Source of the DNA: an uncultured Chthonomonadaceae bacterium
Lineage (GTDB): Bacteria > Armatimonadota > Chthonomonadetes > Chthonomonadales > Chthonomonadaceae
DNA length: 64,000 nucleotides
Direction: 5' to 3'
Assembly: GCA_963817895.1 (NCBI GenBank)
Contig: CAWFQB010000003.1
Span: 1 to 64,000, forward strand
Of this stretch, positions 23,089 through 26,919 are shown in pieces. The translations under genes were made by a program, and so were the position numbers. The first letter of the stretch is position 1. Each line of letters opens with the position of its first letter. The notes beneath the pieces were generated by a model, which saw only the letters and a program-made list of their open reading frames with translations, did not search any database and was not told the DNA's origin.

Positions 23089-23326
23089 ATAGCTTCTCCT
23101 TTCCTATTTGTTGTTTTTCAGAACCGCAGAGGATCTTCCCTCCACTTCTCTCTCATTGTATCACAGGTTATTAAAATATGCCAGAGAAATTTTTGAGGAG
23201 GTAGATAGGTAGATGAGTAGATGGGTAGATAGGCATACCGTTTGCTTACAGGCTTGCGCGTTGTGGCAGAGGTATCAGATACGGATGCTGCCATCTACCT
23301 ATCTACTCATCTACCTATCTACCTCC

Positions 23327-23854
23327 TTAAAGATTTCCATAATCGGTCACGGAGCGCTGGCGGGGGTTGACATGGATGCCGGTGGTGTGCAGGTAGGCGA
23401 TGGCGCGTTGTATCTCGCCCAATGGCCCGGAAATGGCGATTTCCACATACCCGCCCTCTTCATCGTCGAAGCCCGCTTGTTCCAGCGTATACACGACATC
23501 GAAGTCTTTGCCCAACCGGTAGAGGATGGGAACATTGTATTGCGCCGGAAGGACGGGGTTCAGGCGCACATAAATGGTGTTGGCGCGCGAAACCGTATCT
23601 TCGGGTTCGCGGACTCGGGCGGGAACAAGAGCGTTGTCCGTGTGTTCCATGACACCGAGCGAACGCAGATAGCCCGTCGCCTGCTCCACTTCCTGCGTAG
23701 AGCCTTCCACATCCAGCGCGACAAAGGCGAAATCGGACGAGACGCGCGCGCGGCGCACATTGGTGACAACATTGAACTTTCGGCCCAACCGCCAGATCAG
23801 CGGCAGCCGCGCCATTTCATTCTTCGCATTGACATTTACAGTAACTACAGGCAT
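23327..23854 (-). CDS. Tandem NIL-domain protein
   Basis: Two repeats: PLIWRLGRKFNVVTNVRRA..LDVEGS..EVEQATGYLRSLGV and PILYRLGKDFDVVYTLEQA..IAISGP..EIQRAIAYLHTTGI. Confidence 0.85.
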   Translation of the reverse strand: MPVVTVNVNAKNEMARLPLIWRLGRKFNVVTNVRRARVSSDFAFVALDVEGSTQEVEQATGYLRSLGVMEHTDNALVPARVREPEDTVSRANTIYVRLNPVLPAQYNVPILYRLGKDFDVVYTLEQAGFDDEEGGYVEIAISGPLGEIQRAIAYLHTTGIHVNPRQRSVTDYGNL

Positions 23855-23943
23855 GGCACATCATCCTCAGGGAAAAGGGAAAAGGGAAAAGAAGAGAAGA
23901 TACGAGATACGAGAAGAAGAGGCATTTCATCCTTCATCCTTTT

Positions 23944-24219
23944 CTAGCCGCCGGCAATGGCGGGCACTATGGACACTTCATCGCCATCTTTGGTCGTCGT
24001 TTCCACGCCGTCCGCGAACCGGATGTCTTCGCCGTTCAGATAGATGTTGACGAATTTGCGCAGTTCGCCCTTATCGTCCAGCAGGGGCTTGACGATGCCG
24101 GGAAAGCGCTGCGACAATTCCGCCACAATGCCGCCGATATTACCGGGCGCAACCGCAATGGTATCTTCATTCTCCGTAAACTTCCGCAGGGGAGTCGGGA
24201 TCAATACATTAACAGGCAT
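23944..24219 (-). CDS. MoaD/ThiS (CysO-like) sulfur carrier protein
   Basis: VLIPTPLRKFT..FPGI..LRKFVNIYLNGEDIRF..DGDEVSIVPAIAGG with C-terminal GG; AAGGAG RBS. Confidence 0.95.
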   Translation of the reverse strand: MPVNVLIPTPLRKFTENEDTIAVAPGNIGGIVAELSQRFPGIVKPLLDDKGELRKFVNIYLNGEDIRFADGVETTTKDGDEVSIVPAIAGG

Positions 24220-24322
24220 AAGGGTTCTCCTTTGAAGTGAGAGTGGAGAGTACCAAGTGGAGAGTGGAGAGTGAAGAGTGAGAGTACGCAAGCATTTCTC
24301 TCACTCTCAACTCTCACTTCTT

Positions 24323-25576
24323 CTATCCTACTCCCGCCAGCAGTTTCTCGGTTTTCAGGGCGGCTTCCAGCGAGGCGAGGCTGGGGGAGATGCCGACCGT
24401 TTGCCCCAACTCCCCGACAACCACTTCCTGCGTTTTCAGGCCGTTGCCGGTGATGGCGATAACCACGATGTCGTCTTTGCCGAAACGCCCCTGCTCGGCC
24501 AATTTTTTGGTGACCGATGTGGTCACGCCGCCCGCCGTTTCGGTGAAAATCCCTTCGGTGCGCCCCAGTAAGCGGATGCCGTCAATCACTTCCTCGTCCG
24601 TCACATCTTCGGCCCATCCGCCGGATTTGCGCACGGTTTCCATTGCGATATACCCGTCAGCGGGGTTGCCGATGGCGATGGATTTAGCGATGGTATTGGG
24701 CTTTTGCGGGCGGAACACTTCGGCTCCGGTCTTGATGGCCGTTGTAATGGGCGAGCAGCCTTTGGCCTGCGCCGCGTACATGCGGGTGGGAACGCCGCCG
24801 TCAATCAATTTCAAGCGGTCGAATTCGTTCAGACCTTTGTAGATTTTGGAGATCAGCGAACCGCCCGCGCACGGCACAACCACATGGTCGGGCGCGCGCC
24901 AGCCAAGCTGTTCCGCGATTTCGTAGCCGAACGATTTAGAGCCGTCGCCGTAGAACGGGCGCAGGTTGATGTTGACGAACGCCCAACCGTACTTGTCGCC
25001 CGCTTCGGCGCACAGGCGGTTTACTTCGTCATAGTTGCCGGATACGGACAGCACATTGGCCCCGTATACCAGCGTCCCCAAAACCTTGCCCTGTTCCAGA
25101 TCGGACGGGATAAAGATGTAGGACTTGAAGCCACCCTCGGCGGAGTGGGCGGCAACGCTGTTGGCGAGATTGCCCGTGCTTGCGCAGGCCACTGTATCAT
25201 AGCCGAATTCGCGCGCTTTGGTCAGGGCGAGAGCGACAACGCGATCCTTGAACGACAGCGTGGGATGGTTGACGGCATCGTTTTTGATGTACAGGTTGTT
25301 CAGCCCAAGTTCGCGGCCCAGATTGCTGGCATGAATCAGCGGCGTCCAGCCGACGTTCTTGCCGACAGTGGGCGGCCCCTCGACGGGCAGCAGGGCATGG
25401 TAGCGCCACATGGAGGCCGGACCGGCCTCAATCGAAGCGCGGGTCACATGCCCCTCGATGAGTTCCCAGTTGAGCATCACCTCCAGTGGCCCGAAACACA
25501 ATTCACACACATGTATGGGCGCGAGCGGATACTCTTCCCCACACTCCCGACACCTCATTCCCAATGTTTTCGCCAT
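24323..25576 (-). CDS. Threonine-synthase-like fold-type II PLP enzyme; by context possibly an O-phosphohomoserine sulfhydrylase
   Basis: N-terminal CxxC..CxxC, NHPTLSFKDR (PLP Lys), CASTGNLANS, YDEVNRLC, KSFGYEIAEQLGW, IAIGNPADG, ETAGG, ITGNGLK. Confidence 0.9.
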   Translation of the reverse strand: MAKTLGMRCRECGEEYPLAPIHVCELCFGPLEVMLNWELIEGHVTRASIEAGPASMWRYHALLPVEGPPTVGKNVGWTPLIHASNLGRELGLNNLYIKNDAVNHPTLSFKDRVVALALTKAREFGYDTVACASTGNLANSVAAHSAEGGFKSYIFIPSDLEQGKVLGTLVYGANVLSVSGNYDEVNRLCAEAGDKYGWAFVNINLRPFYGDGSKSFGYEIAEQLGWRAPDHVVVPCAGGSLISKIYKGLNEFDRLKLIDGGVPTRMYAAQAKGCSPITTAIKTGAEVFRPQKPNTIAKSIAIGNPADGYIAMETVRKSGGWAEDVTDEEVIDGIRLLGRTEGIFTETAGGVTTSVTKKLAEQGRFGKDDIVVIAITGNGLKTQEVVVGELGQTVGISPSLASLEAALKTEKLLAGVG

Positions 25577-25672
25577 AATATCTCCCCTGCGAATTGCCGA
25601 TTTTCATTTGCTGGTTGACGATTGGCCGCAGGTTTGAAGTCCTCGAAAATCGAAAATCGAAAATCGAAAATC

Positions 25673-26095
25673 AAAAAGCCTCTCGTCAGCCGTGCATAAA
25701 TAATGCACAGGACGAGAGGCTGTCGCCTTCGTGGTTCCACCTGTTTTCGCCGCGCCCTCGCAGACGCAGCCTCAGCGAGCGCGGAAATTGCCGATTTTCG
25801 ATTGCTGATTGCCGATTAGTTCACAGTGAAACTAATCGGCAATCGAAAATCGAAAATCGAAAATCGTCAGGCTCTAACCCTGTAACGGGAGCCCCCCGGC
25901 GGGACTTACTGAGGAGAAAGGAGAAAGGAGAAAGGAGAAAGCAACGGCGATGCTACTTTTCCCTTTTCCCTTTTCCCTTTTCCCTTTCTGTGCCGCAGCT
26001 CAAAGGCCATTTCAGCAGGTTCGCTTATACCGGCTCACACCAACCCGGCTCGCTGTGATCGCGCCGCCCGCGTACTCCACCTTCTCAATGCTTTT
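25673..26095 (-). promoter_or_regulatory. Transcriptional T-box riboswitch, predicted Met (AUG) specifier
   Basis: Stem I: GCAUUGAGAAGGUGGAGUA..AGCGAG..GGUGUGAG..GAA AUG G CCUUUGAGC (AUG at 26008-26010). Stem II GAA/AGUA S-turn; CCCGUUA box. Antiterminator ACAGG-UGGAACC-ACGA..UCGU-CCUGU; terminator AGCCUCUCGUC/GACGAGAGGCU-UUUU. Confidence 0.92.
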
Positions 26096-26143
26096 GGAAT
26101 CGTTTCTTCCCAATCGGGAAGGTAAATTTTTCAAAGTTTGACC

Positions 26144-26173
26144 ATTATACTCAGCATTGAAAGGCTTTGTCAA
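26144..26173 (-). promoter_or_regulatory. Consensus sigma70 promoter driving the T-box leader
   Basis: TTGACA-N18-TATAAT on the minus strand, about 50 nt upstream of Stem I. Confidence 0.8.
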
Positions 26174-26189
26174 GCGGCAATCAGCAGAT

Positions 26190-26919
26190 TTAAGAGATAT
26201 AGGAAACAATCTGAATGCCGTTGCGCTCCATGCTGTACAGGAAAACGGCGTTCATCAGGTCGGCGGGATGCGCGGGAATGTCTTCGGCCTGCGCGATTTC
26301 TACAGGAATGTCGTAGGTGTCCACGCAGTTGACAGGCACAATTACGGGATGCAGTTTGTCGGCGGCGTTGGCGCGTAGTTTCAGGTGCATTGCCAATTGG
26401 TACGTGCAAATATCCGTGCAGTCGCCGACCACAATGCGGTGCGTAATGCCGGGATGCGCGTCCAGCCAGGCGTCGAGGGTTGTGCCTTCGCTGGAGGAGA
26501 TGGTATTTTTGGCAACTAGATGGAATTTGGAAGCGAACGGAAGCCGCCATCAGTTCCGGCACGATTTCGGACTCGCTTGTTCCCCGGATGCAGTGCGGCG
26601 GATAGTCCACGAATTCAACGGCGGCGGGGTTGTGCGCGTCATGCGTCAGCACAAAATGCTCCACCCCGGAAGCGTACAGGCTCTCGAACAGTTCCACAAT
26701 CGGCGGCACGACGCCCGCCACGCGGCTGCTTGCCAGCGGCCCCTCGTAGCAGAAGCCGTTAATAACATCCACGCAGAACACGCCGACATGCTGAGGCCCA
26801 CCCGCCTCCTGTATCAGGCTTTCCAGCGGCAGCGGCAGCAAATCATCCAGCCATTCATCCAGATACTCTATAAACGCGCCTGCCCGCGTACTCAGGGGCG
26901 CGATGTCCATCAGCGTCAT
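26190..26919 (-). CDS. Isochorismatase/nicotinamidase-like cysteine hydrolase (frameshift near 26510-26540)
   Basis: CVDVINGFC.EGPL, DAH..EF..YPPHCIRGTSE; second frame VGDCTDICTYQLA. Confidence 0.85.

Follow-up and report, generated by a model that had tools for sequence, protein, structure and literature searches.

A T-box leader with a methionine specifier fronts a probable MetM/MetO operon for homocysteine synthesis in Chthonomonadaceae

Organization of the operon and its leader

The first 64,000 nucleotides (nt) of contig CAWFQB010000003.1 (assembly GCA_963817895.1, an uncultured Chthonomonadaceae bacterium of the phylum Armatimonadota), referred to below as the window, contain a three-gene operon that, together with its leader, occupies positions 23327 to 26173 of the minus strand (Table 1). 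The source genome, designated G000 in coordinates, is represented by an assembly that is 81% complete and rich in frameshifts. Open reading frames and profile matches uphold the gene order given in a preliminary description of this DNA, i.e., a pyridoxal phosphate (PLP)-dependent enzyme resembling threonine synthase (ThrC), a sulfur carrier ending in Gly-Gly, and a protein with two NIL domains. As argued below, the T-box in front of these genes carries a methionine specifier, and the operon likely makes homocysteine via the MetM/MetO route. Published systems are cited from excerpts of the respective papers.

Table 1. Features of the operon and its leader (window coordinates)
Feature	Position	Strand	Remarks
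Sigma-70-type promoter, TTGACA-18-TATAAT	26144..26173	-	12/12 consensus match
T-box Stem I with GA motif, AGUA/GAA S-turn, AG bulge, apical loop and specifier loop	25999..26097	-	
Specifier codon AUG (Met)	26008..26010	-	Conserved purine directly after the codon
Heptamer-repeat hairpin GGGAAAA/TTTCTCC	25905..25990	-	Within the Stem II loop; lineage-specific
Second heptamer-repeat hairpin, TTTTCGA	25780..25870	-	Junction of Stem IIA/B and Stem III; lineage-specific
Antiterminator with T-box bulge UGGA-ACC	25705..25745	-	Bulge at 25739-25733
Intrinsic terminator hairpin and U tract	25667..25721	-	Mutually exclusive with the antiterminator
MetM-like PLP enzyme, 417 aa	24323..25576	-	PALP/ThrC-like; N-terminal CxxC...CxxC; PLP lysine K110; database label threonine synthase
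MetO-like ThiS/MoaD sulfur carrier, 91 aa	23944..24219	-	Ends IAGG, free C-terminal Gly-Gly
Tandem-NIL protein, 175 aa	23327..23854	-	Two ferredoxin-like NIL domains; Pfam PF09383, 54.5 bits, two stretches

The preliminary description had claimed a consensus promoter followed by a complete T-box whose specifier loop reads GAA-AUG-G, with no Thr codon in register, and each of these elements was recovered, including Stem I, the antiterminator, and the competing terminator. In its proposed check against the T-box covariance model, the leader aligns with Rfam RF00230 from end to end (positions 25705-26097; 69 bits, E value 8.5e-15), but the score stays below the gathering score of 93, the alignment containing two hairpin insertions of approximately 70 and 100 nt, whereas a related leader, L136, reaches 97.1 bits. 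Specifically, the traits of RF00230 seen in the window leader are a Stem I backed by covariation and a UGGN-ACC antiterminator with a competing terminator. Over 26 leaders, 96% of the Stem I cells are paired and 11 of the 19 pairs show two-sided changes; none of 500 shuffles gave an equally high value, and slid controls were paired to 24-44%. The predicted folding energies are -31.7 kcal/mol for the terminator versus -14.8 kcal/mol for the antiterminator. Judged by its sequence, the leader is a T-box that departs from the class just in the usual discriminator pairing.

For the specifier, we used the definition of the T-box database TBDB, i.e., a codon in frame 2-4 nt from the end of the specifier loop, in line with the preference of TBDB for a 3′-anchored frame (PMC7778990). 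The 3′ side of the window loop reads GAA-AUG-G-CCUU, with AUG at 26010-26008, and none of its three specifier frames (AAU, AUG, and UGG) contains a Thr codon in register. With a search pattern that left the codon free, 27 of the 30 best MetM loci proved to have AUG; two of the other three were truncated at contig ends, and L040 lacks a T-box. The flanks of the codon vary (GAA, GAAA, or GAAC on the 5′ side, G or A on the 3′ side). Since AUG is fixed while its flanks change on both sides, the Met call holds, and the AAU (Asn) and UGG (Trp) frames are excluded; the tRNAs for these two frames carry G73 and do not fit the UGGA bulge either. The same 3′-anchored rule applied to the two other T-boxes of G000 yields GUC and CUC, the CUC leader being located before ilvB. 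A U-G pair closing the specifier loop after AUG was also considered and dismissed, as it shows no compensatory change and is broken in 5 of the 26 leaders.

The two repeat hairpins within the T-box belong to a larger set of heptamer tandem-repeat hairpins in the window (25905-25990, 25780-25870, 25590-25670, 23205-23326, and 24230-24320). Genome-wide, triple arrays number 560 for heptamers versus 33 for hexamers, 174 for octamers, and 7 for nonamers. In four genomes (G000, G270, G271, and G145), one or two equivalent T-box sites are occupied by different heptamers. Some copies are found within coding frames, and the pattern suggests that the repeat family is mobile or expanding.

The encoded proteins and the proposed route

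The window enzyme is 37% identical to the ThrC of the same genome. All named homologues are labelled threonine synthase, the close ones being from Chthonomonadaceae (Armatimonadota), and models of cysteate synthase scored far below their cut-offs. Among cultured species, an orthologue (P0037) 86% identical to the window enzyme is attributed by its source to Chthonomonas calidirosea. Three residues, R206, Y209, and S213, are invariant or nearly so in the window enzyme and 49 aligned relatives and are shared by a Nonomuraea protein, whereas ThrC has N, R, and Q; the same 50 Armatimonadota proteins and the Nonomuraea protein feature ET-AGG in place of the EP-ASA of ThrC, as well as four invariant cysteines (ribbon). 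The ThrC-type residues of the segments SVNPYRLEGQK and GNAGN, which we take to have a catalytic role in ThrC, are not present in the window enzyme; a literature search on ThrC active-site residues returned nothing. The Nonomuraea protein, from Nonomuraea gerenzanensis and the best named match in a plasmid collection, is 51% identical to the window enzyme, and its gene is preceded by an S-adenosylmethionine (SAM)-I riboswitch and followed by a gene for a GG carrier 41% identical to that of the window. The metM gene of Streptomyces albulus is reported in the same arrangement of SAM riboswitch and carrier (PMC12172450). The occurrence of two unrelated types of methionine sensor before one and the same pair of genes is the strongest indirect evidence for the assignment.

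The carrier gene adjoins the enzyme gene in the family; it lies inside the retrieved locus in 41 of 49 relatives, and its C-terminal GG is invariant (37/37 aligned). The remaining genes of the route are encoded elsewhere in G000. A cysM-mec-carrier-moeZ cluster is located at C5:364110-368724, with Mec and MoeZ within C5:365323-368724, MoeZ being recognized from ThiF and rhodanese motifs rather than from a profile scan; CysK, hom, and a MetH domain are also present. The kinase family HomK (TIGR02535), which is described as replacing ThrB (PMC13759103), was detected in all five genomes tested, exceeding the cut-off in the four relatives and being split in G000. A separate canonical ThrC is encoded at C1:933263-934318 (TIGR00260, 322 bits), and such a gene was found in 35 of the 42 Chthonomonadaceae genomes, whereas MetX, MetA, and HcyBio were not found in the 81% complete assembly. 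The preliminary description had named another thrC, missing metA, metX, metY, and metB, and MoeB/MoeZ and JAMM partners as signs of a methionine rather than a threonine pathway, and the results for thrC, metA, metX, MoeZ, and Mec point in that direction. The route combining a ThrC-like enzyme with a sulfur carrier, which it had placed in Streptomyces, does exist, comprising MetM and MetO together with MoeZ and Mec (PMC13759103, PMC12172450). As a separate observation, the second carrier of G000 (C5:367164-368724), next to mec and cysM, extends beyond its GG into an inserted repeat right before moeZ; carrier and MoeZ are probably a fusion that was split in the assembly.

The structural model of the third protein (predicted local distance difference test [pLDDT] 86) displays two ferredoxin-like domains sharing 28% identity. 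In VIA-align, C-terminal domains of the MetN type take the first three places with Z scores of 7.7-8.2, among them 2qsw (Z 8.2) and 3tui (Z 7.8), with root mean square deviations of 2.2-2.4 over 77 residues; Foldseek with the whole model gave loose matches only, and no sequence match was found in the PDB. The NIL asparagine is kept in domain 1 (N32), while domain 2 of the window protein has Thr instead. A usable NIL match was obtained in 30 of 49 related loci, one more being dropped for a stop. The tandem form is confined to 10 loci of the family, whereas 20 loci of other families contain a single domain, which identifies the tandem as a family-specific duplication; at L141:1936-2436, a single NIL domain is fused behind the internal GG of the carrier. 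The C-terminal NIL domain of MetN binds methionine as a dimer, so a feedback subunit built as a fixed pseudo-dimer is the simplest guess. We give roughly an even chance to the prediction that the tandem-NIL protein is a methionine-binding feedback or accessory subunit. The papers listed in our literature search, which did not extend to subscription papers, contained none linking a NIL domain to MetM.

Across the phylum, the enzyme and MetX are mostly mutually exclusive: among 251 genomes, 79 encode the enzyme only, 112 MetX only, 15 both, and 45 neither, one weak match of 35% having been left out of the enzyme set. Three side observations concern these loci. A conserved gene of approximately 260-280 aa lies between metM and metO in family f29 (L045:2928-3716 and L046:2778-3611) and presumably resembles chlorite-dismutase-family proteins; the carrier is doubled in L145:3348-3917; and the leaders before metM in family f6 (L143-L146) share a short motif, CAAAGGTG ... 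GGCGCGTGCCAGCCT, that has no match at the Rfam gathering scores and is possibly a different regulator.

The T-box anatomy, the invariant AUG, the terminator, the gene order, the partner genes, and the anticorrelation with MetX are backed by sequence and comparison; on this reading, the route would run as follows. Hom and HomK would produce O-phosphohomoserine, and MoeZ would turn the C-terminal Gly-Gly of the carrier into a thiocarboxylate; the PLP enzyme would then swap the phosphate for the carrier sulfur, homocysteine would be released by Mec or by hydrolysis, and MetH would methylate it. Under methionine shortage, the antiterminator would be stabilized by uncharged tRNA-Met, and transcription would proceed beyond the terminator.

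Several points weigh against this reading. The window enzyme scores 274.6 bits with the thrC model TIGR00260 (cut-off 167.1), and its link to S. albulus MetM runs through the Nonomuraea homologue. According to excerpts of PMC12172450, threonine was formed in vitro by a Microcystis homologue with 51.6% identity to MetM, and this protein was not fully MetM-like in cells. The genomes with both enzyme and MetX and those with neither depart from the alternation, and the Fisher P value for the anticorrelation is overstated because kin are not independent. As ThrB was found in none of the 42 Chthonomonadaceae genomes, the supply of O-phosphohomoserine rests on HomK, and frameshifts in G000 have split HomK and CysM as well as the second carrier/MoeZ. 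Two further, unassigned Cys/Met PLP enzymes of G000 (C2:47953-49158 and C1:1007052-1008231), of a type represented at least once in 38 of the 42 family genomes, could provide another homocysteine route. The fold scores near 8 of the NIL protein are modestly above those of unrelated folds (6.9). Of 20 more distant loci, 3 have such a T-box leader and the motif search found none in the other 17, one of which is truncated at a contig border; T-box control is thus confined to a portion of the phylum. Finally, the UGGA bulge has no Watson-Crick partner in either standard CAU tRNA-Met.

Two other explanations of the operon have to be weighed. The enzyme might be a second threonine synthase or a threonine deaminase, with the carrier and NIL genes as passengers; besides the TIGR00260 score and the label on every named homologue, the ThrC and deaminase activities of the Microcystis homologue in vitro (PMC12172450) would agree with this. 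However, the SAM-controlled Nonomuraea homologue likewise exceeds the TIGR00260 cut-off, and therefore this model does not separate MetM-like enzymes from ThrC, while threonine synthase is a frequent misannotation of MetM (GapMind; PMC13759103, supplement S1D). Given also the separate canonical ThrC, the invariant AUG with no Thr codon in any specifier frame, the anticorrelation with MetX, and the SAM control of a homologue, we regard this explanation as highly improbable. It also seems improbable that the operon serves methionine with the carrier not being the direct donor, the enzyme using free sulfide or cysteine or making cysteine from O-phosphoserine. Several distant loci do place the enzyme alongside cysK/cysM, moeB, and mec genes, and 8 of 49 loci have no carrier within the retrieved range, but G000 already possesses CysK and the CysM-Mec-MoeZ cluster, the carrier is adjacent in the family with its GG unchanged, and the cysteate synthase scores are low. 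On the genomic evidence, the operon very probably belongs to the MetM/MetO route.

The discriminator base and the two tRNA-Met species

In most T-boxes, base N of the UGGN bulge pairs with tRNA base 73 (TBDB; PMC7778990). The window leader deviates from this majority rule, N being A while elongator tRNA-Met has A73 and initiator tRNA-Met C73. The preliminary description had raised the UGGA bulge as a caveat, which proved justified for the whole family: N is A in 22 of 25 Chthonomonadaceae Met leaders, G in 2, and U in 1, as compared to U in 16 and A in 3 of 19 Met leaders from other families. C was not seen in any of these 44 parsed leaders, for which the search pattern demanded AUG. An order-wide scan that left N free returned 78 matches, with A in 31, G in 2, and U in 1 of the Met type, U in all 31 of the Leu type and all 8 of the Val type, and five other matches; the types were verified on a subset. 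One UGGA match, L125, falls within a coding region. A quick enzyme tree, bearing only SH-aLRT branch support (an approximate likelihood ratio test), suggests about five changes of N in all, three from U to A and one each from A to G and from A to U.

On the tRNA side, elongator tRNA-Met was found in 40 of the 42 Chthonomonadaceae genomes, with A73 in every one, and initiator tRNA-Met in 34, with an unusual U72-C73 in every one. Among the parsed initiator genes, 28 of 29 have C73, and in 18 of these CCA is genome-encoded after it, which fixes the register of base 73. The initiator gene of G000 (C14:593210-593283) and its relatives in several Armatimonadota families combine a U1/U72 or C1/U72 mismatch with C73. 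This base is not unique to Chthonomonadaceae, as initiators with C73 were also found in Caulobacterales, some Fimbriimonadaceae, and Myxococcales. Where an initiator was found for leaders outside the family with a bulge U, it likewise has C73.

Three simple explanations of the bulge were tried and rejected. A hidden U73 tRNA-Met has a sole candidate, a degenerate initiator-like CAU gene in the tRNA-Ile/tRNA-Ala rRNA spacer of G000 (C4:876823-876892) that ends in A72-U73; since similar genes in G270 and G271 have C73 at the end, it cannot account for an A throughout the family. Descent from a Cys, Gly, or Thr T-box, with the bulge as a relic, was likewise rejected, as the outgroups already carry AUG with UGGU, which makes A the derived state. 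Pairing of the fifth bulge base with U72 is disfavoured because the ACC part of the bulge is structural (PMC7583486). Energy estimates for the bulge-tRNA pairing gave no decision between initiator and elongator, and in G268, a 64% assembly with the only family leader carrying U, neither initiator nor elongator tRNA-Met was found.

As to which tRNA is read, we slightly favour the initiator, with A opposite C73, although this preference remains tentative. The purine alleles suit a pyrimidine at position 73, G would pair perfectly with C73, and the Met T-box of Staphylococcus aureus is reported to prefer initiator tRNA (PMC3771891). The elongator might instead be read through an A-A mismatch that detunes the switch and lowers read-through, a possibility we rate only slightly lower. 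Most outgroup leaders keep a U that pairs with elongator A73 despite a C73 initiator where found, and G, the perfect partner of C73, is rare in the family; both favour the elongator with a detuning mismatch. Against it, the Leu- and Val-type bulges of the same order all keep U for their A73 tRNAs, the Met bulge moved from U to A three times and to G once but never to C, and the preference in S. aureus is for the initiator. Reading of both tRNA-Met forms appears rather unlikely. A more far-reaching version of initiator reading, which we consider doubtful, is that the Chthonomonadaceae Met T-box was rewired to the initiator (U72-C73-CCA) via a non-Watson-Crick A-C73 contact or, in one genus, a G-C73 pair, that the pathway was thereby tuned to the supply of formylmethionine for initiation, and that the covalently fixed NIL dimer acts as a second methionine brake at the protein level. 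If the rewiring were true, A, G, and U would constitute a natural allelic series for initiator/elongator discrimination by a T-box.

Related systems and significance

Upstream of the operon, an isochorismatase/nicotinamidase-like gene (window positions 26170-26919) is split over two frames, one of many frameshifts in the assembly. Elsewhere in G000, ARAGORN called a tRNA with a CUA anticodon (labelled Pyl; C11:90528-90599) and a tRNA-Sec (C1:245013-245110), and the arrays of tRNA genes located on C4 and C3 appear to be mobile.

The MetM/MetO route of S. albulus was reportedly described by Hasebe et al. in 2024 (AEM 90:e01247-24). The thiocarboxylate route of this organism, with MoeZ and Mec (PMC13759103, PMC12172450, bioRxiv 10.64898/2026.09.15.751699), is the closest known system. 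It shares with the Chthonomonadaceae operon a ThrC-like enzyme adjoining a carrier, MoeZ and Mec in the genome, and a methionine-responsive leader, and the identities to the SAM-controlled actinobacterial pair (51% for the enzyme, 41% for the carrier) point the same way. In contrast to S. albulus, the leader here is a Met T-box instead of a SAM riboswitch, a tandem-NIL gene is added, the carrier ends in a free GG, and O-phosphohomoserine apparently comes from HomK, not ThrB. The S. aureus met leader (PMC3771891) likewise acts on transcription, as a Met-specifier T-box located upstream of genes for methionine synthesis; according to the excerpts, however, it has UGGU and controls trans-sulfuration genes, whereas UGGA and an initiator C73 are found here. 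With canonical ThrC (TIGR00260; PDB 2zsj and 1uim), the window enzyme has in common the fold-type II PLP architecture, the FKDR lysine, and ASTGN motifs, but it differs by its N-terminal four-Cys ribbon and by NLRPFYGDGSK for SVNPYRLEGQK, AGGS for GNAGN, and ETAGG for EPASA. The third protein resembles MetN and the NIL/ferredoxin protein MA1822 (PMC5764234) in matching Pfam NIL twice, in having the MetN C-terminal domain as best structural match, and in its methionine-pathway context; unlike these proteins as described in the excerpts, it stands alone and carries two NIL domains but neither an ATPase nor a ferredoxin.

The pathway itself has already been described as MetM/MetO, and what is new is the family-wide discriminator mismatch; a literature search joining T-box, Armatimonadetes, and riboswitch, with subscription papers outside its range, found nothing. 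The Met codon in a tRNA sensor provides independent regulatory evidence that an enzyme widely misannotated as threonine synthase would serve methionine outside Streptomyces. In a family whose genomes almost never yielded MetX or ThrB, the operon would close the gap at homocysteine. Moreover, the family-wide mismatch together with the C73 initiator makes directly testable the question posed by S. aureus, namely, how a Met T-box chooses between two tRNAs with the same anticodon.

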